NCBI GenBank assembly: GCA_051859245.1
Contig: JBHYGA010000004.1
Coordinates: 384,001 to 448,000 of the forward strand
Source: Gemmatimonadaceae bacterium
Lineage (GTDB): Bacteria > Gemmatimonadota > Gemmatimonadetes > Gemmatimonadales > Gemmatimonadaceae
Length of the DNA stretch: 64,000 bases
Direction: 5' to 3'
Notes under the pieces: model-generated
The model's database searches: none
What the model was told of the DNA's origin: nothing
The model's input: only the letters and a program-made list of their open reading frames with translations
In this document: positions 29,368 through 60,818 of the stretch, piece by piece
Numbering within the stretch: position 1 is the stretch's first letter
How the letters are laid out: the number at the start of each line of letters is the position of its first letter
Position numbers and translations under genes: made by a program

Positions 29368-29496
29368 AACGTGGGCCGGAGAAACGGTGCCGGCGCGCGA
29401 AGCCGGGTTCGACAGGCGGGTTGGGCAACAGGGGAACACAGAGGATTGTAGCGCCTCGATGCAACCCTCGTCGCTGGCTATGGTACATTTCACACT

Positions 29497-41106: not shown

Positions 41107-41955
41107 ATGACCGCTGACAACGCGTTGTTGATTGCGCTTGGTCTGTTCGCGCTCGTGGGCAGCGGTGCCGCCGTGTACTGGTGGCTGAACCGTACGCCAT
41201 CAGGGTACCGACGAGATCGGGACGCTGAGCTGCCGCTGTTTTCGGTTTCGATGCCCGACTCGCGTCGCACGCCACCGCGTCCCGCCACGCCGCCGGCGGC
41301 CGCGCCAGTGGTGCCCAAGTCCGCCGGAAAGGCGCCTGAGACGCCGGTGGCTGTTCCTGCGGCGGCGGCGCCCAAGCCGGCGAAGAAAAGTTCGGAGCCG
41401 AACATTATTGAGATTTCGACCGCAACGGCCGCGGCGCCGGTTGCCACGCCGGTTGCCACACCGGTTGCACCGCCGGTCGCCACTCCAGTCGCCACGCCGC
41501 CTGCGGCGGCAGGAGTCACGAATCCCGCGCCCACGCCGGAGCCGGTTCTCGCCCACGGCGTGCCTGGATCCGTGGTCGAAGGGCATCTGTTGCGGTTCAG
41601 CGTGCCTCAGGAGGGCACGCTGCAGTTTCTGCCCGGACGTCTCGAAGTGTCGGGCGGTCTGGACGCCGGACGTGAGATCCGCTTTGTCCGCGTTCCTGGC
41701 CCGGATGGGACACAGGTCACATTTGGGCGTAGCGAAGGCCCGGCCTATCGCCACATTCAATTGCGCGAGGCCACGGTGAGCCGATTGCACGCCCGCCTCA
41801 CGCTGCGTGAGGGCACGTGGCATCTGACCAACCTCTCGTCGACCAACCCCGCCGTATATAACGGACGCATCTTGAACACCGGCGAAGAACAGCCGCTGTC
41901 CGATGGTGACCGGATCGAGATGGGCGAAGTACTTTTCGGTTTCCGTAGCCGATAA
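41107..41955 (+). CDS. membrane-anchored FHA domain protein
   Basis: N-terminal TM helix, Pro/Ala/Thr linker, FHA motifs 'FGRS', 'VSRLHARL', 'NLSSTN', 'LSDGDRIEMG'. Confidence 0.9.
   Translation: MTADNALLIALGLFALVGSGAAVYWWLNRTPSGYRRDRDAELPLFSVSMPDSRRTPPRPATPPAAAPVVPKSAGKAPETPVAVPAAAAPKPAKKSSEPNIIEISTATAAAPVATPVATPVAPPVATPVATPPAAAGVTNPAPTPEPVLAHGVPGSVVEGHLLRFSVPQEGTLQFLPGRLEVSGGLDAGREIRFVRVPGPDGTQVTFGRSEGPAYRHIQLREATVSRLHARLTLREGTWHLTNLSSTNPAVYNGRILNTGEEQPLSDGDRIEMGEVLFGFRSR
41437..41496 (+). repeat. 12-nt tandem repeat x5 encoding PVAT/PVAP
   Basis: ccggttgccacg ccggttgccaca ccggttgcaccg ccggtcgccact ccagtcgccacg. Confidence 0.8.
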
Positions 41956-41997
41956 TTCAGCGCGCCGCAGGGCGCCGAAGGGCAAGGACTCTGTGGG

Positions 41998-44649
41998 ATG
42001 ATCGACGCGTTCGACGACAGCGAGGTTGCAGACCTCGAAGACGAATACGAACTGCTGGGTGAGCTAGGGCGTGGTGCCAGCGCGATTGTATATCGCGCAC
42101 GCGACCGCGCCCTCGGTCGCCTCGTGGCTATTAAAGTCGTGCGCGCGCATTCCATCGCGTCTGCTGATGATGCGATGCTCCGACTGGCGCGTGAAGCACG
42201 CACCGTCGCCAAGCTGCAACATCCGAACATCGTCACCGTGCACGCGGTCAAGCGTTTGCGAACGGGTGGACTGGCGCTCGTGATGCAGCTCGTACCCGGT
42301 CGCACGCTCAAACAAGCCATCGTCGAGCACGGTCCGTTTGCGCCGGAACAGGCTGAACGCGTGCTGCACGATGTGGCCGAAGCGCTGGCCTATGCGCATG
42401 CGCACGGCGTCGTGCACCGCGATGTCAAACCGGAAAACATTTTTCTCGACGCGGACAGCGGCCGCGCGCTGCTCAGCGACTTTGGCATTGCACACAGTGC
42501 AGACAATGAATCGCGACTGACGATGACCGGCGCGGCCATTGGTACGCCCGCGTACATGGCGCCAGAGCAGATTGATGGCGCGCCTGCCGACGCGCGCTCG
42601 GACATTTACAGTCTCGGTCTTGTGATGTGGGAGATGCTCACGGGCAAACGTCCGTGGGACGGCGAATCGCTGTTCAATGTGATCTCCAAACAGAAGCAGG
42701 AAGACCTGCCGGCAATTGATGCGCTGCGACCGGGTGTTGTACCACCACGATTGCAGTACATCACCGAGCGCATGTTGCAGAAGCGCGCCGCCGCGCGCTG
42801 GGCCGGTGCGGACGGCTTGCTCGCGAATCTCGATCATTGGGTGGTGCCGAACGACTGGCGCCAATGGGAAGCGGCCCACAAACGCCGCCGCGAAGCCGCG
42901 CGCGCGATGCGTGCTGAACAGCGCGAAGCAAACGAGACGGCGTCGCCCTCAGACATGGCGACCATCCGGTTCCGTCGTGATGGGAGTACGCCCGGATCCA
43001 ATGTGCAGGTGATTGATCGCGGCGCGATGGTCACACCCGCGTCCGCGGCGTCGCTGGTACCGGAAGACGACAAGCCGTCGTGGGCTGTTGAACCAACCGC
43101 GCCGCCGCGCCGAGCGTGGCGCGCCGCCATGGTTGCCGCAATGCTCATCGCCGTCGGAACAGGCGCGGCGTGGTACGCCGACGCAACGGGCCGGATCAAC
43201 ATGCGCGCACTGATCGGTGGATCGGCAAGCAGCGCGACGCTCGCCAATGCGAACGCTGACGCGCGGTCAGGAGCCGCGCTAGTGACTGACACGCAAGTTG
43301 GAACGCTGAGTGATTCCACGTCCGTGCTCGGCGCCGTTGCGGCGGACTCGGTGGTGGCAGCCACCACGGGCAGCCCCACCGGGGTGGCGCCAAGCAGTGA
43401 TCAAGTGGGCGCAACGGCGGCACTCAATGGCGCAACGCCACCGCTGACCACTGATCGACAGCCGACAACGGCGGTGCCAATCGTGCCGCCGGAATCCGTA
43501 CCGCCGCGTGCGCGTCGTGCGGCACCCGTGGCGTCGCCGGCGCCGAGTGTCGCAACAGAATCCACACCCGCCGCCCCCGCGGTTCGCGCAACGGATGACG
43601 CGGGCGTGGTGAGCGCCGGCGGCCGACACAGTTGTGCACTCGCCAATGGACGCGCGCTGTGCTGGGGTGCAAACGACGCGGGACAGTTGGGCAACGGTGA
43701 CGTCGAATCGAGTGATGCACCGAGTGCCGTGGCTGGAGATCTTGAGTTTGTACAGATCGCGGCCGGACTGGCGCACACGTGCGGCGTCGCCCGCGGCGGC
43801 GATGCGTACTGCTGGGGCGCCGATGATCGCGGTCAACTGGGTGATGCCACTACAACGTCGCGCAGTGCGCCGGTGCGGGTGAACTCGAATCTGAATTTTC
43901 GCGTGGTGCGCAGCGGCTCCAATCACACCTGCGGACTGACCACGGGCGCACAAATCGCCTGCTGGGGCTTAAACACCATGGGTCAGGTCGGCGATGGTAC
44001 GTATGGTATGCGCACCTCACCGGTGCGCATCAACAGTGATCAGCGGTTTGTGTCGGTCTCCACCGGTTGGAATCACAGCTGCGCAATCGCGTACGACGGT
44101 TCGGCGTGGTGCTGGGGAGCAAACAACGACGGTCAGCTTGGCGACGGTACGCGCACCAATCAGAACGCGCCGCAGCGTGTGCAGTCGAGTTTGCGTTTTA
44201 CCAGCTTGTCAGCGGGAGGCGGACACACCTGCGGTGTGACGGAAGACGGCGCGCTGCATTGCTGGGGACGCAATGCGTTTGGACAGCTTGGTATTGGAAA
44301 TACAACATCGCAATCTGCGCCGGTGCGTGTGGAGAGCACCGCGCGATTCGCGTCCGTGAGCCTGGGCGGTGTGCATAGCTGTGCGCGCACCACCAGTGGT
44401 CAGGCGTGGTGCTGGGGCCTCAACACGTACGGACAACTCGGCGACGGAAGCATGGTCAACCGATCGTCTCCGGTCCGGGTGATTGGCGTGAGCAACTTTG
44501 CCGTGATCAACGCAACGGGTGCGCACACTTGCGGCACCACGACTGACGGCTCGGTGTCGTGTTGGGGATTCAATGTGCAGGGACAGCTTGGTGATGGCAC
44601 TCGAAACCATCTGGCACGTCCGACTCGCGTAGCGATTCCGGGGCGCTAA
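41998..44649 (+). CDS. Hanks-type Ser/Thr protein kinase with TM helix and extracytoplasmic RCC1-repeat propeller
   Basis: 'LGRGASAIV', 'VAIK', 'HRDVKPEN', 'DFG', 'GTPAYMAPE', a TM helix, then ~7 'HTC...CWG.N..GQLG.G' repeats. Confidence 0.93.
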   Translation: MIDAFDDSEVADLEDEYELLGELGRGASAIVYRARDRALGRLVAIKVVRAHSIASADDAMLRLAREARTVAKLQHPNIVTVHAVKRLRTGGLALVMQLVPGRTLKQAIVEHGPFAPEQAERVLHDVAEALAYAHAHGVVHRDVKPENIFLDADSGRALLSDFGIAHSADNESRLTMTGAAIGTPAYMAPEQIDGAPADARSDIYSLGLVMWEMLTGKRPWDGESLFNVISKQKQEDLPAIDALRPGVVPPRLQYITERMLQKRAAARWAGADGLLANLDHWVVPNDWRQWEAAHKRRREAARAMRAEQREANETASPSDMATIRFRRDGSTPGSNVQVIDRGAMVTPASAASLVPEDDKPSWAVEPTAPPRRAWRAAMVAAMLIAVGTGAAWYADATGRINMRALIGGSASSATLANANADARSGAALVTDTQVGTLSDSTSVLGAVAADSVVAATTGSPTGVAPSSDQVGATAALNGATPPLTTDRQPTTAVPIVPPESVPPRARRAAPVASPAPSVATESTPAAPAVRATDDAGVVSAGGRHSCALANGRALCWGANDAGQLGNGDVESSDAPSAVAGDLEFVQIAAGLAHTCGVARGGDAYCWGADDRGQLGDATTTSRSAPVRVNSNLNFRVVRSGSNHTCGLTTGAQIACWGLNTMGQVGDGTYGMRTSPVRINSDQRFVSVSTGWNHSCAIAYDGSAWCWGANNDGQLGDGTRTNQNAPQRVQSSLRFTSLSAGGGHTCGVTEDGALHCWGRNAFGQLGIGNTTSQSAPVRVESTARFASVSLGGVHSCARTTSGQAWCWGLNTYGQLGDGSMVNRSSPVRVIGVSNFAVINATGAHTCGTTTDGSVSCWGFNVQGQLGDGTRNHLARPTRVAIPGR

Positions 44650-44650
44650 G

Positions 44651-47600
44651 GTGTCTCGTCGTAGTCGATCACAGGGTGCGCTCCTGTGGATGCGCGCTGT
44701 ATTGACGGCCATGATGGTGTTGTCGAGTAGTGCGTGTGTGCGCATGGGCGACATCAGCGGACCGACGCCAGTTGGCGGGATCGTGGAAACGATCACGCTG
44801 TCATCAACAGACGTCACGCTTGGTGTGGGTTCGACGGTCACACTGCAAGCGGTGGCGCGCGACCGAGATGGCGAAACGATCAGCGACCGTGTGGTCACGT
44901 GGTCATCGAGCGACAGCACGATTGTGCGCGTGACATCGGCGGGTGTTCTGACCGGCGTTTCGAACGGCACGGCGCAGGTTGCCGTATCGATTGCCGGACA
45001 AAGCGCACTGGCGCAGGTGCGCGTGATTCCGCGTCCTGTCAGCACGATTGAACTTGGCCCGCTCGCGCCGCGAATTCTGGTGGGCGGTTTTGTGCAACTG
45101 GTTGCGTTACCGCGTGACGAAACGGGCGCGCCGTTGCCCGAACGCACGGTGTTCTGGTCGAGCAGCGATGTGGCCGTTGCAACGGTAGATGCGGCCGGTT
45201 TTGTGAGCGGACTCTCACCGGGCGCCACAACGATCACGGCACGCAGCGAGTCGCGTGAGGCAGCGGTTGGTGTCACGGTCAGCGCGGTGCCGGTGCGATC
45301 GGTGCTCGTGTCGCCGCGTGTTGACACAATTGTTGTGGGGCAGAGCACACAGCTGACAGCGATCGCTCGCGATTCCAATACCGTGCCGTTGGTTGATCGA
45401 GTGTTCGCGTGGCGCTCGGAGAATCTTGGTAGGGCGACCGTATCGGCAACGGGGTTGGTGCTAGGTGTTTCGCCGGGCACGGTGACAATTGTTGCGCAGA
45501 CTGATGATGTGGTCGGGACGGCGACTGTCGTTGTACAGCCGAGACCAATTGGCGCCGTGATCGTTTCGCCCGCGCAGGCGTCGTTGTCCGTAGGTACGAC
45601 TGTCAGCGTGACCGTGCAGATCACCGATGCCAACGGCAATCTGTTGACCGGCCGACCGATCAGCTTTTCCAGCGAGAACACATCAATTGCGACGGTGACG
45701 AACGCTGGTGTTGTCCGAGCGGTGGCTGTTGGCACCACGAACATTCGTGCCACGAGCGAAGGACAAACTGGCGTGATGAGTGTGACGGTCACACCAACGC
45801 CGGTGGCATCAGTGCGCATTGCGCCGCTCAACTCATCGTTGACGGTAGGTGATAGTGTGCGTCTCACTGCGTCAGCGCTCGACGACGCGGGCAGCGTGCT
45901 CTCGCAGCGTCCTGCGACGTGGACCAGCGGTGCGCCGAGTGTGCTGTCGGTGTCGAGCACGGGACTGGTGCGCGCGCTGAGTGCGGGCACGGGTTTGGTG
46001 TTCGCCGTGATCGATGGACGTGTTGCATCGGCCACGATTGTGGTGGCCGCGGTGCCGGTTGGTGAGGTGGTGGTCACACCGGCCACGGCGAATGTGGTGG
46101 TGAACACGACGCTCGATCTCACGGCCGTGGCGCGTGACGCGAGTGGGGTGTTGATCAACAAACCGGTCGTGTGGTCAAGCGCGGATCCGCTGATCGCGCT
46201 CGTGTCGAGCACCGGTCGTGTACGTGGCGTGGCTGTGGGCACAGCACGAATCGAGGCGACCGTCGATGGTCAGACGGGCACGAGTACGATCACCGTGGTG
46301 CCCGTTCCTGTTGCCAGTGTGGCACTCACGCTCACCGATTCATCGCTGAACGTTGGACAAACCGCGCAGGGCGCGGTGGTGTTGCGCGATGCCGCGGGAA
46401 ATATTCTGACCGGTCGTCCCATCACGTGGACAAGCAGCGCGCCGTTGGTGGCAACGGTAAATGCATCGGGGTTGGTGACGGCCGTGAACGGCGGTGCGGC
46501 TAACATCACGGCCACCAGTGGTACGGTGTCGGCTTCGGTCAACGTAGTCGTGTCCGCCGTTGTTGGTTCGCTGTCCGTGCAAACGCAGCCAGCCGGTGCG
46601 GTGAGCGGCAGCGTGTTTACCACGCAGCCGGTCGTGCGCATTCTCGATGCAAACGGGAACCTGGTCGCCACAGGGCCGAGCTCTGTGCTTCCAGTCACCG
46701 TTACACGCGCATCCGGATCCGCCTCGCTCGGCGGCACGACCACCGTGACGGCCGTGAATGGCGTGGCCACGTTCACCAACCTGGCGTTCACAGGTGCCGG
46801 CATTGGGGCGCATACGTTGCGATTCTCCACCGTATCGCCGGCGCTTGAGGTGACCTCTGCGTCATTCAATGTGGCGCCCGGTGCGGCAACGACGTTGACA
46901 GCTGTCTCGAGTCTGAGTCAGAGTGCGGCGGCGGGTGCGCTGGTGAGTGCGCCCCCCAGCGTGCGTGTGTCGGACGCGAGTGGAAATCCTGTGAGTGGTG
47001 TGAGCGTGACGTTTGCGGTGATCAGTGGTGGCGGGACCATTACACCCGCCAGCACGGCAACGGTCGTCACGAATGCGAGTGGTGTGGCGGCGCTCACGCA
47101 GTGGCGACTCGGCACCATTGCAGGTGCGAACAGCGTACGCGCAACGGCGGCCGGACTCACGGGCAGTCCTATCACGTTCAGCGCGACGGGCACGGTTGGT
47201 ACACCAACGCAGCTGGCCGTACTCACGCAACCGGCCGGTGCGATCAGTGGTCGCGCGCTCACCACGCAACCTGTGGTCGAGATTCGCGACGCGGCGGGAA
47301 ATCGTGTCACCGGTGCGAGCGATGCCGTGACGGTATCCGTTGCGACTGGCAGTGGTGATGTGGCGGGCACCGTGACCGTGAATGCGGTGAACGGTGTGGC
47401 GACCTTTACCAATGTTCGTATTGATGGCGCCGGTGCCCACACCCTGCGATTTGCGGCAGCAGGTTTGACCTCGGCGACTTCGGCGTCAATCACGGTGACG
47501 CAGGTTCCCGTAGCCCTGTCGATCTTCACGCAGCCCGCCGGGGCCGTGAGCAGCGCAACGTTTACCACACAACCAGTTGTTCGCATTCTTGACGACGCTG

Positions 47601-50600
47601 GTCTGGTGGTGACCACAGGCAGCGGTTCATCGCTCACCGTTGCGGCGTCGGTCGCAAGCGGTACCGGCACACTTGGCGGTACGGCGAGCGTGAATGCCGT
47701 GAATGGTGTGGCCACGTTCTCGAACTTGTCACTGACCGGTTCTGGTGCGCACACGCTTCGGTTCAGCACCACATCACCAGCGCTTGCTGTTGTGTCGGGT
47801 TCGTTGAGTGTGGGAGTTGGTGCGCCTGCAACGATCGCTGCGGTGTCGGCAGTGTCGCAGAGCGCAACGGTGTTGACTGCGGTGGCCGCGGCACCAAGTG
47901 TGCGGGTAACGGACGCCGTTGGTAATCCCGTAAGTGGCGTTACAGTGACATTCGCGGTGACGGCAGGTGGCGGTGTAATTGCACCGGCGAATGGCGTCGT
48001 GAATACAAATGCGAGTGGCGTTGCCACGCTCACCAGTTGGACACTCGGTGCCACGCCCGGTGCAAACAGTGTGACCGGTTCGGCCACGGGCCTCTCCGGC
48101 AGCCCGGTCGTCTTTAACGCAACAGCAACGGTTGGTGCAGCAACTGATCTCGCGATCACCACACAGCCTTCCGGCGCCACGAGCGGTGTGCCATTCACAA
48201 CGCAACCGGTGGTGGAGATTCGCGACGCGCAGGGCAATCGCGTCGCTGGTGCAACCAATGCCGTGACGGCCGAGATTGCGAATGGCAGCGGTGCGCTGGC
48301 GGGAACGATCACCGTGAATGCCGTCAACGGCATCGCAACGTTCACGAATGCACGAGTGAACGGCGCTGGTCCGCACCGCATTCGTTTTGTGGCGTCGGGA
48401 CTGTCGAGTGCGACGTCAGGAAACTTTGTGGTGTCGCAGCGAGCTGCTGCGCTCAACATTTCTGCTCAGCCGGCGGGCAGTGTGAGCGGCGCCGCGCTCA
48501 CCACGCAGCCGGTTGTGCAGGTGCTTGATGATGCCGGGCTGGTCGTGACGACGGGAAGCGACGCGACCGTGACCGTCGCGACATCGATCGCAACCGGCAC
48601 GGGCACGCTTGGTGGCACGACCTCCGTGAATGCCGCAAGCGGCGTGGCAACGTTCACCAACCTGGCGATCTCCGGCTCGGGCGCGCACACGTTGCAGTTC
48701 AGTGTAGCCGCGCGTTCACTGACTGTGGTTTCACAGTCGATTGTTGTGGGCGCACCGCCGGCCACGACAATCGCTGCGAACTCCAGCGTATCGCAGAGCG
48801 CACCGGTGAACAGCAATGTGGCGGCACCGCCGAGTGTGCGTGTGACCGACGCGAATAGCAATCCGGTGAGTGGCGTGAATGTCACGTTCACGGTCACGGC
48901 CGGCGGTGGCACGACCAATCCCGCGAGTGGCGCAGTGGTTGCCACCAACGCCAGCGGTATCGCATCGCTCACGAGTTGGACACTCGGCGCCTCTCCTGGG
49001 GCGAACACGGTGACAGCAACCGCGGCCGGACTCTCGGGGAGTCCGGTCATTTTCAATTCAACGGGTGTGGCGCTTGGCGCCACGCAGCTCGCAATTGTGA
49101 CGCAGCCCACGGGTGCAGTAAGTGGTGTGAGCTTGGTCACGCAACCCGTCATTGAAGTGCGCGATGCGAACGGTGTGTTGGTGGCGAGTTCAACAGCCCC
49201 CGTGACAGCGACGCTTGCATCTGGTTCAGGTGCGCTCGCTGGAACGGTCACCGTCAACGCCGTAAATGGCGTGGCCACGTTCAGCAACTTGCGCATTAAC
49301 GGCAGCGGTGCGCACACGGTGCAGTTCGCGTCACCTGGTTTGACGTCGACCACGTCGAATGTGGTAAACGTTACGCAGGTTGCCGCGTCGCTCTCGGTGC
49401 AAACACAACCTGGCGGCGCCGTGAGCGGCAGTGTGTTCACGCAGCAGCCCGTGGTTCGGATTCTCGATAACGCCGGGCTGGTTGTGACCAGTGGAAGTGG
49501 CGCTTCCCTGAACGTGACCGCCACACGTGTTGCGGGAACGGCCACGTTGAGCGGTGTAACAACTGTGCAAGCCGTGAATGGTGTTGCCACATTCAGCAAT
49601 CTTGCATTTGGTGGCACTGGTGTGGGCGCGCATTCGCTGGACTTCGCCACGGGTACGCCAGCACTCAATGTTGTTTCGGCGAACTTCAATGTGAGCGCTG
49701 GACCCGCCGCGAATATTGGCGCGAACTCGAGTGTTGCGCAGAGCGCGCCAGCGGGTAGCAACGTCGCTGCGGCGCCCAGTGTGCGTGTATCGGATAGCAA
49801 CAACAATCCCGTGGCGGGCGTGAACGTGACGTTCGCCGTGACTGCGGGTGGCGGAACTACGAATCCAGCCAGTGGCGACGTTGTTGCTACAAATGCGAGT
49901 GGAGTGGCGGCGCTCACCAGCTGGACGTTGGGAGCGGCGCCGGGCGCGAACACTGTGACAGCAACGGTCGCAGGACTGATTGGCAGTCCGGTGGCGTTCA
50001 ACGCGACCGGAACAGCTGCCGCCGCGACGCAACTAGGTGTAACGACACAGCCGAGTGGAGCGGTGAGCGGTGTGAATCTCACCACGCAGCCGGTGGTCGA
50101 GGTGCGCGATGCGAACGGTGATCGTGTCACCACATCAACCGCGGCAATTACTGCGACGATTTCCTCCGGCAATGGTGTGTTGATTGGCACGGCAACGGTG
50201 AATGCAGTGGCTGGTGTTGCGACGTTTACGAATCTGCGCGTGAACGGCAGCGGGGATCAACAGTTGCAGTTTGCGTCGGCCGGACTCACAGCCGTCACAT
50301 CCAACACATTCGCTGTTGCTCAGGTGCCAGCATCACTTTCGGTGTTCACGCAGCCAAGCGGTGCGGTGAGTGGCGCCGCGTTTACTACGCAGCCGGTGGT
50401 GCGAATACTTGATAACGCTGGTCTGGTCGTAGTGAGCGGGAGCGGCGCCACACTGAACGTTTCTGCGGCTCGCATGGCGGGAACAGCAACACTCGGCGGA
50501 GTGACCACGATTGTGGCCGTAAATGGCGTCGCCACGTTTACGGATCTTTCGTTTGGCGGCGCCGGCATTGGCACCCATTCACTCGACTTCACCACGGTCG

Positions 50601-53600
50601 CGCCCGCGCTGAGTGTGACGTCGGCGAACTTCAATGTGAGTGCTGGACCGGCTTCTTCGATCGCTGCGGTTTCCAGCACCGCACAGAGTGCACCTGCGGG
50701 ATCGACGGTGAGCGCACCGCCGAGTGTGCGTGTGGCGGATAGCAACAACAATCCGGTGAGCGGTGTGGCCGTCACGTTTGCTGTGGCGAGTGGCGGCGGA
50801 TCGATTGTGCCGGGCGATGGTGCAGTCAGTACGAACGCGAGTGGAATTGCCACGCTCACGTCGTGGACCCTTGGGGCGGCACCGGGTGCGAACTCAGTAA
50901 CAGCGACGGCCGCGGGACTTGTTGGAAGTCCGGTGGCGTTTAACGCGACGGGAACAGCTGCCGCCGCAACGCAGCTGGGCATCACAACGCAGCCTGGCGG
51001 TGCGGTGAGTGGCGTGAATCTGACAACGCAGCCGGTGGTTGAGGTGCGTGATGCCAACGGTGATCGTGTGACCACGTCAACGGCGGCGGTGACTGCCGTG
51101 ATTACCTCTGGTACCGGCGCGCTTGTCGGCACGGCTACCGTAAACGCCGTCGCTGGTGTGGCGACCTTTACAACATTGCGTGTGAACGGCAGTGGTGATC
51201 ATCAGCTGCAGTTCACTGCGGCTGGGCTTACGGCGGCGAGCTCGAATACGTTCGCTGTGACTCAGGTGCCGGCATCGCTTTCGGTATTGACACAGCCGAG
51301 CGGTGCGGTGAGCGGTACGGCGTTCACTACGCAGCCGGTAGTGCGGATTCTTGACAACGCGGGCCTGGTTGTCGTGAGTGGAAGTGGAGCCACGCTCAAT
51401 GTGTCAGCGGCGCGCATGGCGGGCACGGCCACGCTGAGCGGTGTGCTCACCATTGCGGCGGCAAATGGTGTCGCCACGTTTACGAATCTGGCGTTCACCG
51501 GCACTGGTGTTGGCGCGCACTCCATAGACTTTACGACCAGTGCGCCAGCGCTGACTGTGACGTCGGCGAACTTTACCGTGAGCGCAGGTGCGGCCGCGAC
51601 GATTGCGTCTGCATCAAGTGTTGCACAAAACGCACCCGCCGGATCACCGGTTGCGGCGCCGCCGAGTGTGCGCGTGGCGGATAGCAACAACAATCCGGTG
51701 AGTGGTGTGGCCGTGACGTTTGCGGTGGCAAGTGGTGGCGGATCCATTGTGCCGGGCGATGGTGCGGTCAGTACAAATGCGAGTGGCATTGCGACGCTCA
51801 CGTCGTGGACGCTTGGTGCGGCGCCGGGGGCAAACTCGGTGACAGCGACCGCGGCGGGGTTGGTGGGCAGTCCGGTCACGTTCAATGCGACCGGAACGGC
51901 TGGGGCAGCGACGCAGCTTGGTATCACGACGCAGCCTGGCGGCTCAGTGAGTGGCGTGAATCTCACGACGCAGCCAGTGGTGGAAGTACGTGATGCGAAT
52001 GGTGATCGTGTGGCGACGTCAACGGCGGCGGTGACGGCGACGATTACGTCGGGAACTGGTGCGCTGGTTGGCACGCAGACTGTGAACGCTGTAGCCGGTG
52101 TCGCGACGTTCACCAATCTGCGAGTGAACGGCGGCGGTGATCATCAGTTGCAGTTCACCGCGGCCGGACTCACCGCAGCCACGTCCAATACCTTTGCGGT
52201 GACACAGGTGCCGGCTTCGTTGTCCGTGCAAACGCAGCCGAATGGCGCGGTGAATGGCGTGGCGTTCACCACGCAGCCGGTTGTGCGCATTCTGGACAAC
52301 GCAGGTCTTGTGGTGACGACTGGTTCGGGCGCAACACTTGATGTTGTGGCCGCACGCGCAACTGGCACGGCCAACCTCAGCGGGACGGTGACCAAAGCCG
52401 CGGTGGCGGGTGTCGCGACATTCGACAACCTTGTGCTTACGGGGACGGCTGGCGCGCACACGCTGTCATTCACCACCGCTGCACCAGCGCTGAATGTTTC
52501 CTCGGCGAGCTTCACGCTGGCTGCAGGGAGTGCGGCGAGCATCGCGGCAACGTCGAGCACTTCGCAGTCAGCAACTGCCGGAACTAATGTATCGGCCGCG
52601 CCCACCGTGCGAGTGGCGGATGCGAACAACAATCCGGTGGCCGGCGTGAATGTCACGTTTGCAGTGGCGAGTGGTGGCGGATCGATTGTGCCGGGTGACG
52701 GTGCGGCGAGCACGAATGCGAGTGGCATTGCTACGCTGACGTCGTGGACGCTTGGTGCGACGCCAGGGGCAAACTCGGTGACAGCGACGGCGGCGGGGTT
52801 AGCGGGCAGTCCCATCACGTTCAACGCCACGGGTGACCCACTGCCCGCAACACAGCTCGCTGTACTCACGCAGCCAGCCGGTGCCGTGAGTGGTGTTGCG
52901 TTCACCACACAACCGGTGATCGAAGTGCGTGATGCGAATGGCAATCGGGTCACATCATCCACGGTAGCGGTGACCGCCACGCGCACGGATGGTAATGGCG
53001 TCATCGCTGGTACCACCACCGTGAACGCCGTCGCCGGCGTGGCAACGTTTACCAACCTGCAGCTCAATGGAAGCGGCTCCAACACATTGCAGTTCACATC
53101 CGGTGCGTTGACGGCGGCGAACTCCAACGCGTTTACTGTCACGCAAGTCGCCGCGTCACTTGCAATACAGTCGCAGCCAACAACAGCGGTGAGCGGAAGC
53201 GCGTTGTCGCCTCAGCCTGTGATTCACATTCTTGATAACGCGGGATTGCTGGTGGTAACTGGCTCGGGTGCAACACTGACCGTGGAGGCCACACGTGTCG
53301 CGGGCACGGCGAACCTGGGCGGCACGCTGACTGCAGTCGCGGCTGGAGGCATCGCGTCGTTCAGCAACGTGTCAATTACCGGTGTTGGCACAGGCACGCA
53401 CACAATTCAGTTCAGTACGTCGGCACCGGCGCTTGCCGTGACGTCAGGCAACATTGCAGTCAGTGCGGGCGTGGCAACAACAATCGCCGCCGTCTCTGCC
53501 GCGCCGCAAAATGCACCGGTTGGCACGAACGTAGCGGTTGCACCCAGCGTGCGCGTGACCGACGCCAACGGCAATCCGGTGGCCGGCGTGAACGTCACGT

Positions 53601-53872
53601 TCACCCTCACTGGCGGTAGTGGCAGCATAAATCCTCAGAGCGCAGCCGTGATCGCGACCAACGTCAGTGGCATTGCGGCGCTCACGAGCTGGACAGTCGG
53701 CGCGGCACCTGGCGCAAACACCGTGGAAGCGACCGCCGCTGGTCTCGCCGGTTCGCCCGTGGTGTTCACCGCGAACGGCACGGCGCTTGAACCGCTGGCC
53801 GTTGTGCGCGCACTGAGTAACGCGCCGAGCAACGCACTCCCGCGTACCATGCAGCGCACGGTGGAGCGATGA
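44651..53872 (+). CDS. giant (3073 aa) Ig-like repeat surface lipoprotein / adhesin
   Basis: Lipobox-like SSAC, ~7 Big_2 domains ('VTWSSSD..V.TV..G'), then ~7.7 copies of a ~313-aa three-domain unit. A/V/T/S/G-rich. Confidence 0.88.
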   Translation: MSRRSRSQGALLWMRAVLTAMMVLSSSACVRMGDISGPTPVGGIVETITLSSTDVTLGVGSTVTLQAVARDRDGETISDRVVTWSSSDSTIVRVTSAGVLTGVSNGTAQVAVSIAGQSALAQVRVIPRPVSTIELGPLAPRILVGGFVQLVALPRDETGAPLPERTVFWSSSDVAVATVDAAGFVSGLSPGATTITARSESREAAVGVTVSAVPVRSVLVSPRVDTIVVGQSTQLTAIARDSNTVPLVDRVFAWRSENLGRATVSATGLVLGVSPGTVTIVAQTDDVVGTATVVVQPRPIGAVIVSPAQASLSVGTTVSVTVQITDANGNLLTGRPISFSSENTSIATVTNAGVVRAVAVGTTNIRATSEGQTGVMSVTVTPTPVASVRIAPLNSSLTVGDSVRLTASALDDAGSVLSQRPATWTSGAPSVLSVSSTGLVRALSAGTGLVFAVIDGRVASATIVVAAVPVGEVVVTPATANVVVNTTLDLTAVARDASGVLINKPVVWSSADPLIALVSSTGRVRGVAVGTARIEATVDGQTGTSTITVVPVPVASVALTLTDSSLNVGQTAQGAVVLRDAAGNILTGRPITWTSSAPLVATVNASGLVTAVNGGAANITATSGTVSASVNVVVSAVVGSLSVQTQPAGAVSGSVFTTQPVVRILDANGNLVATGPSSVLPVTVTRASGSASLGGTTTVTAVNGVATFTNLAFTGAGIGAHTLRFSTVSPALEVTSASFNVAPGAATTLTAVSSLSQSAAAGALVSAPPSVRVSDASGNPVSGVSVTFAVISGGGTITPASTATVVTNASGVAALTQWRLGTIAGANSVRATAAGLTGSPITFSATGTVGTPTQLAVLTQPAGAISGRALTTQPVVEIRDAAGNRVTGASDAVTVSVATGSGDVAGTVTVNAVNGVATFTNVRIDGAGAHTLRFAAAGLTSATSASITVTQVPVALSIFTQPAGAVSSATFTTQPVVRILDDAGLVVTTGSGSSLTVAASVASGTGTLGGTASVNAVNGVATFSNLSLTGSGAHTLRFSTTSPALAVVSGSLSVGVGAPATIAAVSAVSQSATVLTAVAAAPSVRVTDAVGNPVSGVTVTFAVTAGGGVIAPANGVVNTNASGVATLTSWTLGATPGANSVTGSATGLSGSPVVFNATATVGAATDLAITTQPSGATSGVPFTTQPVVEIRDAQGNRVAGATNAVTAEIANGSGALAGTITVNAVNGIATFTNARVNGAGPHRIRFVASGLSSATSGNFVVSQRAAALNISAQPAGSVSGAALTTQPVVQVLDDAGLVVTTGSDATVTVATSIATGTGTLGGTTSVNAASGVATFTNLAISGSGAHTLQFSVAARSLTVVSQSIVVGAPPATTIAANSSVSQSAPVNSNVAAPPSVRVTDANSNPVSGVNVTFTVTAGGGTTNPASGAVVATNASGIASLTSWTLGASPGANTVTATAAGLSGSPVIFNSTGVALGATQLAIVTQPTGAVSGVSLVTQPVIEVRDANGVLVASSTAPVTATLASGSGALAGTVTVNAVNGVATFSNLRINGSGAHTVQFASPGLTSTTSNVVNVTQVAASLSVQTQPGGAVSGSVFTQQPVVRILDNAGLVVTSGSGASLNVTATRVAGTATLSGVTTVQAVNGVATFSNLAFGGTGVGAHSLDFATGTPALNVVSANFNVSAGPAANIGANSSVAQSAPAGSNVAAAPSVRVSDSNNNPVAGVNVTFAVTAGGGTTNPASGDVVATNASGVAALTSWTLGAAPGANTVTATVAGLIGSPVAFNATGTAAAATQLGVTTQPSGAVSGVNLTTQPVVEVRDANGDRVTTSTAAITATISSGNGVLIGTATVNAVAGVATFTNLRVNGSGDQQLQFASAGLTAVTSNTFAVAQVPASLSVFTQPSGAVSGAAFTTQPVVRILDNAGLVVVSGSGATLNVSAARMAGTATLGGVTTIVAVNGVATFTDLSFGGAGIGTHSLDFTTVAPALSVTSANFNVSAGPASSIAAVSSTAQSAPAGSTVSAPPSVRVADSNNNPVSGVAVTFAVASGGGSIVPGDGAVSTNASGIATLTSWTLGAAPGANSVTATAAGLVGSPVAFNATGTAAAATQLGITTQPGGAVSGVNLTTQPVVEVRDANGDRVTTSTAAVTAVITSGTGALVGTATVNAVAGVATFTTLRVNGSGDHQLQFTAAGLTAASSNTFAVTQVPASLSVLTQPSGAVSGTAFTTQPVVRILDNAGLVVVSGSGATLNVSAARMAGTATLSGVLTIAAANGVATFTNLAFTGTGVGAHSIDFTTSAPALTVTSANFTVSAGAAATIASASSVAQNAPAGSPVAAPPSVRVADSNNNPVSGVAVTFAVASGGGSIVPGDGAVSTNASGIATLTSWTLGAAPGANSVTATAAGLVGSPVTFNATGTAGAATQLGITTQPGGSVSGVNLTTQPVVEVRDANGDRVATSTAAVTATITSGTGALVGTQTVNAVAGVATFTNLRVNGGGDHQLQFTAAGLTAATSNTFAVTQVPASLSVQTQPNGAVNGVAFTTQPVVRILDNAGLVVTTGSGATLDVVAARATGTANLSGTVTKAAVAGVATFDNLVLTGTAGAHTLSFTTAAPALNVSSASFTLAAGSAASIAATSSTSQSATAGTNVSAAPTVRVADANNNPVAGVNVTFAVASGGGSIVPGDGAASTNASGIATLTSWTLGATPGANSVTATAAGLAGSPITFNATGDPLPATQLAVLTQPAGAVSGVAFTTQPVIEVRDANGNRVTSSTVAVTATRTDGNGVIAGTTTVNAVAGVATFTNLQLNGSGSNTLQFTSGALTAANSNAFTVTQVAASLAIQSQPTTAVSGSALSPQPVIHILDNAGLLVVTGSGATLTVEATRVAGTANLGGTLTAVAAGGIASFSNVSITGVGTGTHTIQFSTSAPALAVTSGNIAVSAGVATTIAAVSAAPQNAPVGTNVAVAPSVRVTDANGNPVAGVNVTFTLTGGSGSINPQSAAVIATNVSGIAALTSWTVGAAPGANTVEATAAGLAGSPVVFTANGTALEPLAVVRALSNAPSNALPRTMQRTVER
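46568..53790 (+). repeat. tandem ~940-nt repeat unit (domains A-B-C x7 plus A-B)
   Basis: Domain A starts ('SLSVQTQP' type) at about 46568, 47513, 48449, 49388, 50333, 51275, 52217 and 53156. Confidence 0.9.
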
Positions 53873-55533
53873 GTATGGATCAAACTGCAACACGCCCCCT
53901 CGTGGAACGCACGTTCACCCAATGCGGTCGCGCGCTTCGCTCCGTGTGCAGCGCCATGTTCGCCTTCACACTCGCCGCGTGCTCCGCCAGTGTGACGGAC
54001 ACGCCACAAGTCGCGCAGGTGCAGCTCACACCGCCCTCCGCCAGCGTTGAAGCCGGACGTACCCTGGTCTTGGTCGCACGTCCAACAGATGCCAGCGGCG
54101 CGGCGATCACCGCACGACAGATCACCTGGTCGAGCAACAACACGCAAGTTGCCACCGTGTCTGCGGCTGGTGTGGTGTCGGCGCGCGCCACTGGTCAGGC
54201 GCGCATCGCCGCGAGTGTTGACGGACAGAGTGCGGTGACCACGATTACGGTCACGGCGCGCGAAGTGGCAAGTGTGCAAGTCGCGCCGGTATCCGTCTCT
54301 GTGCGCGTGAATCGTACCGCACAGGTGAGTGCCAGCGCGCTCGATGCAGACGGTGTGGCGCTTCCTGGCAAAACGTTCGTGTGGAGCAGCAGCAATACGG
54401 CCGTCGCAACGATCACGCAGGCCGGCGTGATCACGGCTGTTGCGCCTGGTGCGGCAACAATCACGGCCACATCCGATGGTCGCAGCGGTCAGGCCGCCGT
54501 AACCGTGACACCGGAACCTGTCGCGTCGGTGACGATTGCGCCCACGCGCGATACGCTCGCTGTTGGCACGGATCGCACGTTCGTTGCGACCGTGCGCGAT
54601 GAAAGTGGCGCGGCGCTCACGGGTCGCACCGTGGTGTGGAATGTGAGTGATCCCGCAATCGCGACGGTGTCATCAACCGGTGTTGTTACGGCACGTGCTC
54701 CAGGCACAGTGACCGTCGTTGCCGTGAGTGAAAACCGTGTGGGCCAGGCCACGCTGGTGGTGCTGCAACGTCTCGCCAACGCGGTCATCCTCACGCCGTC
54801 GTCTGCCACGCTCGAAACAGGCGCCACACTGCAGCTTGTCACGCAAGTGACCGATCCCTCGGGCAATCTGATTCCAGGTCGCGTGGTGACGTACACGAGC
54901 AACAACACTGCGGCCGCAACAGTGAGCAACGCCGGGTTGGTGACCGCGCGTGCTCCGGGTGTGGCACGCATTACCGCAACCAGCGATGGTCGATCGAGCG
55001 TTGCAACAATCACGGTGATTGCGGTGCCGGTGAGTACCGTGCAGGTGTCACCACTCACCAACGACGTGCTGACCGGGTCAACTGTTCCGCTTACCGTGCA
55101 GGTACGTTCTGCCACGGGCACACTGCTCACGGGGCGTACCGTCACGTGGACGAGTGGTGCACCGAGCGTGGCCACGGTATCGGCAAGCGGTGTCGTATCG
55201 GCTGTCTCACCGGGTGTGGTTGTGATCGCCGCGACGGTTGATGGCATTAGCGGATTTGCCACCGTGACCGTGCGTGCACCAACGGTCGCCGCTGTTGTGA
55301 TCACGCCGAATGCGCCGTCACTCGCGGTCGACGCGCGTGTGTTGCTTTCGGCATCCGTGCGCGACAGTAACGGCAACGTGCTCACCGGACGCGCCGTCAC
55401 GTGGCGCAGCAGCAATGAACAAGTCGCCTTTGTGTCGAGTACCGGCACAGTGATCGCCATCAGCGCCGGAACGGCAACCATTACGGCGACCTCGGAGGGA
55501 GTCAGTGCTTCGATTCTTGTCACAGTTCGCTAA
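53869..55533 (+). CDS. Big_2 (Ig-like group 2) repeat lipoprotein, ~6 domains
   Basis: Lipobox LAAC; repeated 'V.WSSSNT.VATV...G.V.A..PG.ATITAT..G'. ATGA overlap with the giant gene. Confidence 0.88.
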   Translation: MSMDQTATRPLVERTFTQCGRALRSVCSAMFAFTLAACSASVTDTPQVAQVQLTPPSASVEAGRTLVLVARPTDASGAAITARQITWSSNNTQVATVSAAGVVSARATGQARIAASVDGQSAVTTITVTAREVASVQVAPVSVSVRVNRTAQVSASALDADGVALPGKTFVWSSSNTAVATITQAGVITAVAPGAATITATSDGRSGQAAVTVTPEPVASVTIAPTRDTLAVGTDRTFVATVRDESGAALTGRTVVWNVSDPAIATVSSTGVVTARAPGTVTVVAVSENRVGQATLVVLQRLANAVILTPSSATLETGATLQLVTQVTDPSGNLIPGRVVTYTSNNTAAATVSNAGLVTARAPGVARITATSDGRSSVATITVIAVPVSTVQVSPLTNDVLTGSTVPLTVQVRSATGTLLTGRTVTWTSGAPSVATVSASGVVSAVSPGVVVIAATVDGISGFATVTVRAPTVAAVVITPNAPSLAVDARVLLSASVRDSNGNVLTGRAVTWRSSNEQVAFVSSTGTVIAISAGTATITATSEGVSASILVTVR

Positions 55534-56626
55534 GCGCAGTGCGCTCGGCGCTTTGCTCGCGATGTCCGTCAGCGTGCCGCTGCATTCAGCGCACGCGCAG
55601 TTGCTGCGCCCGAAACGCACACTCACGGCCGGTGCGGCACCGGGGTGCGAACTTGCGCCTGCTGCCGTTGATAACAACGCGCCGCGCAACAACGCCGAAG
55701 CGCGGCGATTGGCGGCCGCCGCACAGGAAGCCGCGTTGCAGGGTGATCAGGTCGCTGCTCGCGCCGCGTATGTGCGCGCCGCGCAGCTCAATCCGGCTGA
55801 TGAACGTCTCACGTACGACCTCGCACGCGCGCACGAAGAACTGTCGGACACACTGCCAGCAATCGGTGCGTACTGTCGTTACCTCGCGCTTGCACCCAAT
55901 GGCACCGAAGCGAGTGATGTGCGCAATCGTCTGCGCACCCTGGTGCCGAACGACGCGCGTCAGCGTGCCGAAGACGCGGGCATCGCGTTCCGGCTCGGAC
56001 TTGGTTACATGGACTCGCAGAACTACAACGCGGCCGTGCGCGCGTTTGACGAAGTGGTGCGACTCTCTCCCGCGGCACCGGAAGGACATTTCAATCGTGG
56101 ACTCGCACGCTCTGCGGTTGGCGCGAGAGCGGGCGCGTTGTCCGATCTCGAGACGTATCGCGCGGGTGCGAGCACGGTAGAAGAGCGCGTGGAAACGGCG
56201 CGCGCGATTGATGTGCTGCGTCGTCCGGTGTATTCACCAACCACGGCGCTACTGCGCAGTGCGTTGCCAGGATTTGGACAGTTCTATACGGCGCGGCCGG
56301 TGCGCGGTGTAGTGGTGCTCGCGGCCGTGGCCGGTGCACTTGGCGCCGCGCTCACGCAGCAAACCACGGAAACCGTGATCAATTACGTTGACCCGAACGG
56401 ATTTCCGGCGCCGTACACGGAAACCACCACCGAGCGAAAGTTTTTCGTGCCTGGTGTGGCGGCGGCAGCTGGCGTGACGGTGATCGCCGCGATCGAAGCG
56501 GTATGGTACGCGAATCGCTCGCAGCGGGGCACGTCAATTCTTGATCGATCGGGTGGTGTGTCGGTTACGCCCACGATCTCGCGTGATGGCCGCTTTGGCC
56601 TCGCGCTTCGCGCGCCGCTATTCTAG
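55505..56626 (+). CDS. secreted TPR protein with C-terminal DUF5683-like membrane segment
   Basis: Signal peptide ending AHA|Q, TPRs ('YCRYLALAPNG', 'HFNRGLA'), 'SALPGFGQFY', C-terminal ...FGLALRAPLF. Confidence 0.75.
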   Translation: MLRFLSQFAKRSALGALLAMSVSVPLHSAHAQLLRPKRTLTAGAAPGCELAPAAVDNNAPRNNAEARRLAAAAQEAALQGDQVAARAAYVRAAQLNPADERLTYDLARAHEELSDTLPAIGAYCRYLALAPNGTEASDVRNRLRTLVPNDARQRAEDAGIAFRLGLGYMDSQNYNAAVRAFDEVVRLSPAAPEGHFNRGLARSAVGARAGALSDLETYRAGASTVEERVETARAIDVLRRPVYSPTTALLRSALPGFGQFYTARPVRGVVVLAAVAGALGAALTQQTTETVINYVDPNGFPAPYTETTTERKFFVPGVAAAAGVTVIAAIEAVWYANRSQRGTSILDRSGGVSVTPTISRDGRFGLALRAPLF

Positions 56627-56677: not shown

Positions 56678-57706
56678 ATGCGTCTCACGGTTCTCCTCGG
56701 CGGTGTTTCGGCCGAACGCGACGTCTCGTTGTCTACCGGCCTGCGCATGGCCGCCGCGCTGCGCGAGGTCGGGCATGAGGTGACTTGTTTTGACCCCGCG
56801 TTTGGTGTGCTGGGCGCGGAGACGGAGCGGTCACTGCTGGCGGCTGGCGTGGGCTCAAAGCCGCCGGCGCTGGCCGAACTGGCCGAGCTGCGGCACCGGT
56901 CGCTTTCAGCGGACTGGGTATCGCATTCCGCCATCCGGAATGCAGAATGTATCGTGATCGGACTGCACGGCGGTCAGGGGGAAGACGGCACGGTACAGGC
57001 GGCGCTTGATCTGGCTGGCGTTCCATATACTGGAAGTGGGCACATGGCCAGCGCGCTCTCGATGGACAAACATCTGAGCAAGATTGTGCTGCGCTTTGCC
57101 GGGGTGCCCACGGCCGACTGGATCATGGCGCCGCCACTTGGCGATGCACCGCTCGATCCGGCGCTGGTTACCGAGCAGGTGGGCTGGCCGGCCGTGGTCA
57201 AACCGTCCAGACAAGGCAGCACGGTTGGCCTGAGCATCGTAAACGGCCCCGAGGAGCTGCAAGCAGCGATCGAAGAGGCGTACAGATTCGATGATGCCGT
57301 GATGGTGGAGCGATTCGTCGCCGGTCGGGAGTTCACGGTGGGCATTCTGGGCGACGAAGCCTTGCCGGTGATCGAGATCGTGCCGGCCAAAGCGCTCTAC
57401 GATTACGAGTGCAAGTACACGCCCGGCATGGCGCAGGAGTTTGTGGCGGATCTGCCGGCGGAAACGGTGGAGCGTATCACCGCGTATTCCTTGCAGGCGT
57501 TTGGTGCGTGTGGACTGAGCGGCTACGGTCGGGTGGATTTTCGCATGGACCCTGACGGTGGCCTCTGGTGTCTGGAACTCAACACGTTGCCGGGGATGAC
57601 GCCTACCAGTCTCATTCCACAGGCTGCAGCGGCGGCGGATCTATTGTTTCCGGCGCTCTGCAACCGCATCGTGGAGTTGGCCCTCGCGTCACGGCGGCGC
57701 GGGTAA
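56678..57706 (+). CDS. ddl: D-alanine--D-alanine ligase
   Basis: 'GGVSAERDVSL', 'LHGGQGEDG', 'MDKHLSK', 'VVKPSRQGSTVG', 'YDYECKY', 'LELNTLPGMTPTSL'. Confidence 0.97.
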   Translation: MRLTVLLGGVSAERDVSLSTGLRMAAALREVGHEVTCFDPAFGVLGAETERSLLAAGVGSKPPALAELAELRHRSLSADWVSHSAIRNAECIVIGLHGGQGEDGTVQAALDLAGVPYTGSGHMASALSMDKHLSKIVLRFAGVPTADWIMAPPLGDAPLDPALVTEQVGWPAVVKPSRQGSTVGLSIVNGPEELQAAIEEAYRFDDAVMVERFVAGREFTVGILGDEALPVIEIVPAKALYDYECKYTPGMAQEFVADLPAETVERITAYSLQAFGACGLSGYGRVDFRMDPDGGLWCLELNTLPGMTPTSLIPQAAAAADLLFPALCNRIVELALASRRRG

Positions 57707-57734
57707 ACCCACGCGCACGCGCCCTCCCCCGATC

Positions 57735-58664
57735 ATGTCTTTCGCCATCGCGGACGAATACGAACCGCAACGAAGCAGTGCGCCGGCCGTGGCGTGGATC
57801 ATTGGCCTGTGCGTGGCTGTCGCGTTTCTCCAGGAGACGCTCACCGGCGACGCGCTGATGAGTGGCTGGCTGGGCTATCGCGCCACGGATCTTGGCGAGC
57901 GCCGCCTGTGGACCACGGTCACGTACATGTTTGTGCACGGCGGTCTGCTGCACCTCGTGTTCAACATGTACATGCTGTGGATGTTCGGACGCCGAGTTGA
58001 ACGCGCGTGGGGCAGCAGCACGTTCACGTGGTTCTACTTGTGGTGCGGCGTGAGTGGCTGGGCATTCCACTGGATGTTCACACCGCGTGCGGGTGTGCTC
58101 GTTGGTGCAAGCGCGGCGATTCTTGGTGTGGCCGTTGCGTATGCATCACGCTGGCCCGATGACGAACTGTATCTGTTCGGCATTGTGCCCATGAAAGTGC
58201 GCTGGCTCGTGGTTTTTCTCGCCGCGCTCAGTCTGGTCATGGTTGTGGTGAACGCAGGCGCTGTTGGTGGCACGGCGTACGCCGCACACTTTGGCGGCAT
58301 GTTTGGTGGTTGGTTGTATTTGCGCACACCAAACGCGCAGAGCATTGATCGGTTGCGCCGTCGCATTGCACCCGCGCCCGATTACGGCGACGATCCACCA
58401 CGCGCCGTTCCTCGGCATTCGTCACGTCCGCGTGAACGCGAGCCCGAGATTGATGACATCGTGGCGCAGAGCAAAGCCGCGATGGCGCGCACGCGCAACG
58501 TGATGCCTGCGGCGAGTGCGCCCGCTGCACCAACGAGCATGGTAGCCGCGCGCGCGGCGATGGATATGCTGCTCGACAAGATTGCCGATCAGGGCATGCA
58601 GTCGCTCTCGAATGATGAGCGACAGTTGCTGGACGAGATGAGCCGGAAGTTGCGCGGGGGCTAA
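57735..58664 (+). CDS. rhomboid family intramembrane serine protease with C-terminal helical extension
   Basis: 'TYMFVHGGLLHLVFNM', 'VGASA', 'AHFGG'; C-terminal 'DMLLDKIADQGMQSLSNDERQLL'. Confidence 0.92.
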   Translation: MSFAIADEYEPQRSSAPAVAWIIGLCVAVAFLQETLTGDALMSGWLGYRATDLGERRLWTTVTYMFVHGGLLHLVFNMYMLWMFGRRVERAWGSSTFTWFYLWCGVSGWAFHWMFTPRAGVLVGASAAILGVAVAYASRWPDDELYLFGIVPMKVRWLVVFLAALSLVMVVVNAGAVGGTAYAAHFGGMFGGWLYLRTPNAQSIDRLRRRIAPAPDYGDDPPRAVPRHSSRPREREPEIDDIVAQSKAAMARTRNVMPAASAPAAPTSMVAARAAMDMLLDKIADQGMQSLSNDERQLLDEMSRKLRGG

Positions 58665-60801: not shown

Positions 60802-60818
60802 AACTGTTGCCACCGCTG

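Follow-up and report, generated by a model that had tools for sequence, protein, structure and literature searches.

What could hold together, in a single operon, a membrane protein with an FHA domain, a receptor-type kinase, two lipoproteins built from immunoglobulin-like (Ig) repeats and an exported TPR protein? The question is raised by five genes in a 64,000-nucleotide stretch of a Gemmatimonadaceae genome (assembly GCA_051859245.1, contig JBHYGA010000004.1, positions 384,001 to 448,000), which we refer to as the window. A sequence-only reading of these genes had proposed a contact-sensing system that links a very long adhesin to threonine phosphorylation, with the TPR protein as an assembly or export factor. 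The five genes are a conserved module of the Gemmatimonadota and not an accident of one genome. We give a probability of roughly 55% to the reading, drawn from sequence comparisons, that the module would be a trans-envelope threonine-phosphorylation circuit composed of the Ig lipoproteins, a TPR anchor, the kinase with its RCC1 propeller, and an FHA protein working with a phosphatase.

Conservation of the module

The gene order FHA, kinase/RCC1, Ig and TPR recurs across many genera. In the loci that were fetched, the kinase gene lies directly downstream of 103 of the 107 distinct FHA genes; three of the four exceptions are second FHA copies behind a TPR gene, and one is solitary. Both the kinase-RCC1 gene and the TPR gene were present in 44 loci, with one to five intervening Ig open reading frames (ORFs) in 37 and none in seven, where some of the splits between Ig ORFs may be assembly errors. 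Co-conservation, on which the sequence-only reading had made itself depend, was also borne out by a 251-genome panel of the phylum, in which the TPR protein was found in 25 genomes, the FHA protein in 25, and both in 22. These tallies include the present genome (G000) and an unpublished one (G021), and misses are possible, as 7 (TPR) and 16 (FHA) candidates were scored per genome. One family, f1, accounted for most of the matches (19 of its 53 genomes for TPR and 21 for FHA); f4, f7 and f8 added a few genomes, and there was no match to either protein in the 114 panel genomes of family f2. Among 61 near genomes, those with a strong match to the TPR protein are largely those with a strong match to the FHA protein. 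Identity to the closest named relatives, which belong to the Gemmatimonadaceae, reaches 93% over the FHA region.

What speaks most strongly for a single phospho-circuit is that the parts stay together when their order changes, and that the eraser is then joined to the reader. In all three fetched loci of f7, a family from another order of the same class, the genes run TPR, short Big_2 lipoprotein, second Ig protein, FHA-PP2C and kinase-Big_1-RCC1. The FHA and PP2C domains are encoded by a single ORF in L125 and L126 and by two overlapping frames in L132, and the long Ig slot holds either Big_1/invasin repeats or a 2843-amino-acid (aa) DUF11 array. Because the parts are retained under rearrangement, function is indicated rather than passive linkage. 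A PP2C gene fused or adjacent to the FHA gene was seen in f7 loci only; the five PP2C matches of the present genome sit elsewhere.

A collection of species representatives was also scanned, and the best 80 of 186 confirmed stretches (78 loci) were kept. The search pattern was built from this family, so the scan is little informative on other phyla; the record titles of the kept loci name Gemmatimonadota in all but two cases, one titled only "bacterium" and one probably mislabelled. The latter, L036, is titled as an anammox planctomycete, and we treated it as a likely mislabelled or contaminated bin because its kinase nests among Gemmatimonas sequences in a quick kinase tree. Two related-looking loci, in which the kinase ectodomain is of another type, were also seen: in L127 FHA adjoins a kinase-TonB_C protein, and in L134 Big_2-TPR-Big_2 adjoins a degenerate kinase-PEGA protein.

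Table 1. Module genes and candidate phosphosites, with positions in the window.
Feature	Position	Strand	Description
Membrane FHA protein	41107..41955	+	282 aa ORF
Hanks-type Ser/Thr kinase with RCC1 propeller	41998..44649	+	883 aa ORF
Giant Ig-repeat lipoprotein	44651..53872	+	3073 aa ORF
Second Ig lipoprotein	53869..55533	+	554 aa ORF
Exported TPR protein	55505..56626	+	373 aa ORF
T171-x-x-F174, just before FHA strand 1	41617..41628	+	possible second phosphosite; loop in model
Juxtamembrane T322-x-x-F325, Arg at +5	42961..42972	+	likely autophosphorylated FHA docking site

The kinase and its predicted FHA reader

Much of what the sequence-only reading had described stands. The five genes are co-oriented with intergenic distances of 42, 1, -4 and -29 nt, exact in the ORF calls, and a Pfam scan assigned them, in order, FHA, Pkinase plus seven RCC1 repeats, Big_2/Big_1, six Big_2 and TPR. 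The kinase is an intact receptor type (Pkinase E 1e-51, over the cut-off; RCC1 x7), in which the VAIK, HRDVKPEN, DFG and APE motifs of active Hanks-type kinases are all intact. The kinase domain is followed by a juxtamembrane linker, a membrane helix (residues ~376-394), a low-complexity linker and the 7-bladed RCC1 propeller, and no other kinase hit of this genome bears RCC1 repeats. Both Ig proteins are predicted lipoproteins (see below), and no secretion-system family was matched among the 34 window ORFs scanned with Pfam, in agreement with the earlier statement that no T1SS, T5SS or T6SS genes adjoin the operon. Two lipoproteins elsewhere in the genome, at C1:743377-745371 and C1:1230235-1231713 of G000, have RCC1 repeats without a kinase, one of them with three Big_2 domains.

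The FHA protein consists of an N-terminal membrane helix, a Pro/Ala linker and an FHA domain (PF00498, E 6e-14) with an extra N-terminal beta-hairpin; a hydrophobic N-terminal helix is found in 99 of 101 relatives. The structure model has the FHA fold with a predicted local distance difference test score (pLDDT) of 94.8. The phosphothreonine (pThr) pocket residues G-R, S-R-x-H and T-N are invariant in all 103 aligned domains, so that the pocket (G-R, S-x-x-H, N) and the fold are those of a pThr-binding FHA domain, and the alignment also revealed conserved surfaces outside the pocket.

A candidate ligand for this pocket was found in the kinase itself. Of 78 distinct module kinases, 72 have a T-x-x-F motif in the juxtamembrane linker, which is otherwise variable (mean 7.4 and maximum 16 in 1000 shuffles), and 69 of these also have Arg at +5; the six remaining kinases have T-x-x-(Y/I/L/W), as judged by eye. 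In the other kinases of this genome (22 of ~38 could be parsed for the comparison), the juxtamembrane segment contained T-x-x-F in 3 of 21 and T-[LIVM]-x-F in none. FHA domains read pThr plus the +3 residue (PMC6733907), and the phosphorylated juxtamembrane segment of PknB is reported to bind FhaA (PMC12077195). In light of the motif conservation, this +3 reading and the PknB-FhaA precedent, T322 is a likely phospho-docking site for the FHA domain. The pairing of kinase and FHA protein, which the sequence-only reading had drawn from known kinase/FHA pairs, thus gains from gene adjacency, the conserved T-x-x-F and the FHA-PP2C fusion.

The FHA protein has a T-x-x-F of its own, beginning at T171, a position occupied by Thr in 92 of 103 sequences. 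Since it lies 2-6 residues before strand 1, binding would be in trans, and T171 may be a trans ligand or merely structural. FHA duplications were observed in L011, L014, L068, L077, L082-L084, L087-L095, L108 and L130; in several tandem pairs, the Thr before strand 1 has been lost from the second copy.

The envelope side and the patterns of loss

If the reader is on the cytoplasmic side, which part passes a signal to the propeller on the other? The sequence-only reading had an RCC1-Ig pair in view, and the losses favor RCC1-TPR instead. Seven Ig-less loci keep an RCC1 propeller with an RCC1/kinase identity ratio in the normal range (0.74-0.87). In the seven loci without a TPR gene, RCC1 has diverged in three, is absent in two and is replaced by Big_2 in one, and the kinase is gone in one; ranked by RCC1/kinase identity ratio, the three diverged propellers (0.60-0.64) come last among 84 rows. 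The TPR gene was not found elsewhere in any of the seven genomes with a TPR-less locus; the same query matched three Ig-less genomes. On the quick kinase tree, Ig loss takes five changes (five forced by strong branches) and TPR loss five (three forced). Mirror-tree partial correlations over 33 modules were rejected as evidence, because the kinase and TPR proteins, on opposite sides of the membrane, score 0.56, compared with 0.33 for RCC1-TPR and 0.31 for RCC1-Ig.

The TPR gene also accompanies the other parts when the kinase is missing: L102 has RCC1, TPR and Ig without a kinase domain, and in L103-L106 the fetched stretches have TPR and Ig genes as neighbors but no kinase. From these associations and the asymmetric losses, the TPR protein is the best candidate for a hub, as judged from sequence. 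In L103-L106 the TPR proteins are 660-705 aa Big_1-TPR paralogues, convergent with lipoproteins of 11-12 Big_2 domains. In L078 (10415-12511), the RCC1 part of the module kinase is replaced by two Big_2 domains, and the end of the protein resembles the second lipoprotein; a deletion probably fused the kinase to the end of an Ig gene.

In the model of the TPR protein (pLDDT 93.7), a PGxGQ segment follows the helical repeats. Each of the two helices after it, the first of them hydrophobic, leads into a beta-hairpin, the first hairpin being long and the second terminal; there are two conserved Cys. A fold search with the whole model returned TPR matches only, over residues 29-210. The TPR assignment of the sequence-only reading stands, and its two other features need qualification: the DUF5683 match is weak and below the cut-off (E 0.014, 15.9 bits vs 26.7; 4 of 14 members match at E<=1), and a terminal Phe is found in 29 of 56 C-termini, with an aromatic residue among the last two positions in 35 of 56. 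The atlas leads for the C-terminal unit were DUF5683 (0.90) and Borrelia P13 (0.87). When 19 of the 150 listed hits were scanned, this unit was also found on caspase-like and Big_1-TPR proteins. For example, P0232 and P0262 are exported caspase-like (Peptidase_C14) proteins with the unit at their end, while P0125, P0128, P0238 and P0214 are TPR relatives with 2-4 tandem PGxGQ helical membrane units and one terminal hairpin. Its presence on caspase-like proteins suggests a generic membrane anchor and weakens the idea of a dedicated export factor; together with the tandem copies, it points to a modular, probably self-associating anchor. By sequence and model, the TPR protein has a somewhat better than even chance of being located in the outer membrane.

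The Ig genes are where the module varies and not an indispensable core, and here the sequence-only reading is not supported as it stood: they are absent from 7 of the 44 loci that have both kinase-RCC1 and TPR, the number of Ig domains per locus ranges from 2 to 42, and no tip domain, adhesive or other, was seen on the Ig proteins. By profiles, the giant protein has 30 Ig units, namely seven Big_2, a single unit of two domains and seven repeats of three domains (~314 aa each), and it terminates 20 residues past the final one; a unit left unassigned by the profiles was Ig-like in the atlas (0.97). The second lipoprotein, with six Big_2, shares 39% identity with the giant one over the latter's N-terminal part. 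The lipoprotein cysteines are Cys29 (giant) and Cys38 (second), and a Cys after the hydrophobic signal is found at the same position in nearly all relatives of both. Conservation per Big_2 domain is 0.50-0.61, and no domain stands out. Given the size of an Ig domain, thirty units would span ~100-130 nm, which is long for the periplasm and favors surface display.

Beyond the TPR gene, on the same strand, lie ddl (D-Ala-D-Ala ligase; gap 51) and a rhomboid gene with DUF6576 (window 56678-58664). With no terminator-like site seen between the TPR gene, ddl and the rhomboid gene, the transcript may exceed the five genes; the promoter/terminator scan gave 0 promoter-like and 16 terminator-like sites, counts at or below the shuffle level. 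The two genes adjoin the TPR gene throughout the genus of the window and were not seen beside the module in the other genera inspected, and they were rejected as core members for this reason. Upstream, in the same genus, is a divergent S9 peptidase gene. The window also encodes a further 815-aa Big_1 lipoprotein (27046-29493, minus strand), whose unassigned C-terminal region has a paralogue on contig C9, and three tandem ORFs of 376-404 aa with no Pfam match (59671-63211).

Competing readings and known systems

From the observed gene content, gene order, domain anatomy, motif conservation and loss patterns, we infer the contacts, the outer-membrane location, the surface exposure and the phosphorylation events of the following scheme. 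The Ig lipoproteins would be held by the TPR protein, predicted to lie in the outer membrane, and this protein would in turn touch the RCC1 propeller that the inner-membrane kinase extends into the periplasm. The most likely input would be clustering or displacement of the lipoprotein-TPR complex, through surface engagement or envelope strain, upon which the propellers would bring kinases together and the kinase would phosphorylate its own T322. The membrane-anchored FHA protein would then dock on pT322 and bring in a phosphatase or a target, serving as both adaptor and reset point, with PP2C fused to it in the order of f7 and a separate phosphatase recruited here. The output, envelope or surface remodelling, is a guess. 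In a bolder version, which we regard as unlikely, a new type of mostly helical, oligomeric TPR port in the outer membrane would display Ig filaments of ~100 nm and relay load or contact on them to the RCC1 kinase. Activation of the kinase would link the membrane FHA proteins, by way of their own T-x-x-F motif, into a TIFA-like signalling patch, and the whole would be a touch sensor based on a receptor kinase, in a phylum of which little has been cultured.

Several observations weigh against the circuit. The TPR-less loci are also without Ig genes, and their kinase domains are on longer branches too, so that the decay of RCC1 may reflect a general decay of the module; these genomes are metagenome bins of unstated completeness. 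Blade-specific RCC1 residues gave overlapping groups (0.5-1.0 in Ig-less loci, 0.4-0.6 in TPR-less loci, and 0.4 for the lowest intact one). Similar pure Big_2 arrays occur elsewhere in two of five Ig-less genomes checked, in which the Ig gene may have moved and not been lost. The juxtamembrane T-x-x-F is missing from the f7 kinases, and T171 is lacking in 11 of 103 FHA proteins, comprising five second tandem copies, one truncated-kinase locus and five deep-branching complete loci. The outer-membrane placement is drawn from the terminal hairpin and from a family match that is weak, the operon has no gene for an effector domain or a target, and the related genomes in all of our counts are not independent.

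The alternative closest to the sequence-only reading is a phospho-gated machine for adhesin display, in which TPR oligomers in the outer membrane would translocate or assemble the Ig lipoproteins, with the kinase and FHA protein controlling TPR assembly from inside. It would account for the lipoprotein signals predicted on all the Ig proteins, for an array that is long for the periplasm, for the TPR-Ig pairs with no kinase nearby and for the tandem membrane units, which suggest self-association; P13, one of the atlas leads, is listed as a pore-former family (PMC4827864). We nevertheless find it doubtful, as seven complete loci retain kinase, RCC1 and TPR with no Ig gene to display, the Ig proteins have no tip domain, the same C-terminal unit anchors caspase-like domains, the monomer model of the TPR protein has no barrel, and a homologous TPR gene is missing from beside ~20 further Ig genes in this genome. 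The missing tip domain would suit a purely periplasmic sensor of envelope stress, in which the Ig lipoproteins would tether the outer membrane to the wall or keep the two apart, and damage to either would be signalled by the kinase to peptidoglycan synthesis. The ddl and rhomboid genes downstream and the response of TagQR-PpkA to membrane damage (PMC13713981) are in line with such a sensor, but the ddl link is limited to one genus and an Ig number of 2-42 is a poor fit to a ruler; we think it improbable.

The resemblance of the architecture to PpkA-Fha-PppA, and the conserved FHA surfaces beyond the pThr pocket, could also mean that the module regulates a secretion or pilus machine whose genes lie elsewhere, or is the orphan of a lost type VI secretion system (T6SS), with the FHA protein as an assembly scaffold. 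This is quite improbable: the sheath (VipB) and Hcp families (PF05943, PF05638) had no match in this genome, which is 99.87% complete, while an E. coli control was positive; the FHA protein falls outside the TagH/Fha family (TIGR03354, 36.5 bits vs a cut-off of 120.25, over the FHA domain only); and the loci inspected, whose flanks were not scanned exhaustively, showed no recognisable machine gene next to the module. Finally, a genome with ~38 kinase hits and >20 Ig proteins could bring such common domains together by chance, without shared function. The conserved order, the content kept under rearrangement and the coupled losses come near to refuting a chance neighborhood, leaving it very little room. 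A trans-envelope phosphorylation circuit is the reading that we prefer.

How does such a circuit compare with those already described? In the T6SS, the PP2C eraser of the threonine phosphorylation pathway is PppA. That pathway comprises TagQ/TagR-PpkA-Fha1 in P. aeruginosa (PMC13713981) and TssW-PpkA-Fha in Acidovorax (PMC12607579), and it shares with the module a lipoprotein or outer-membrane protein, an inner-membrane Hanks kinase with a periplasmic domain, an FHA reader and a PP2C eraser. Membrane kinase, FHA and PP2C do occur together here, kinase and FHA being adjacent and PP2C present at f7 loci only. The module differs in its RCC1 ectodomain, its membrane-anchored FHA protein, and the TPR-DUF5683-like protein and Ig arrays that replace TagQRST. 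The mycobacterial PknB cluster likewise has a membrane FHA protein and PP2C together. In PknB-FhaA/FhaB-PstP, a juxtamembrane phospho-Thr docks the FHA protein (PMC12077195), as predicted here. Unlike that cluster, the module has no PASTA repeats and does have outer-membrane and lipoprotein partners; family scores are below the cut-off (NF033483, 284.6 bits vs 450), and its ectodomain is RCC1.

The nearest structures to the FHA model are the threonine-tail-binding FHA domains of DgcB, OdhI and GarA. With these self-tail switches, and with TIFA fibres, it shares a Thr that precedes the FHA domain and has a hydrophobic residue at +3 (PMC6733907). The module differs in that T171 is so close to strand 1 and not family-wide, and in having, in Gemmatimonadaceae, no enzyme as its output. 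Leptospira LigA/LigB and SiiE-type adhesins are also long bacterial Ig arrays, and Lig proteins have a lipoprotein anchor; tandem bacterial Ig domains with a lipoprotein signal are found here as well. In contrast to these adhesins, the module has no adjoining type I secretion system and no tip domain, it is linked to a kinase, and its repeat type is interchangeable (Big_2, Big_1/invasin, DUF11). Slam, a lipoprotein translocon of TPR and beta-barrel, is encoded beside lipoproteins, as is the TPR protein, and a PGxGQ helical unit would be common to the latter and to DUF5683 and Borrelia P13 proteins. The TPR protein differs in what follows its TPRs: in the monomer model this is a helical hairpin, of two helices, plus a pair of beta-hairpins, with no multi-stranded beta-barrel, and the DUF5683 score is below the cut-off.

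No description of the module was found in the open-access literature, subscription papers and supplements being outside the scope of the search. It would operate much as TagQ/TagR-PpkA-Fha1 and TssW-PpkA-Fha do, but it belongs neither to these systems nor to the PASTA kinases or Slam. Its parts are known folds, and it is the way they are put together, the pairing of T-x-x-F motifs and the pattern of losses that appear undescribed. Gemmatimonadota have dozens of Ser/Thr kinases, yet just two FHA genes are present in this genome; for one of these kinases, the module supplies a predicted chain of input, a phosphosite that can be named, and a reader. If the circuit is correct, RCC1 propellers would gain a role as bacterial receptor ectodomains, the DUF5683/P13-like membrane unit would gain its first functional context, and the logic of PpkA-Fha-PppA would be operating without a T6SS.

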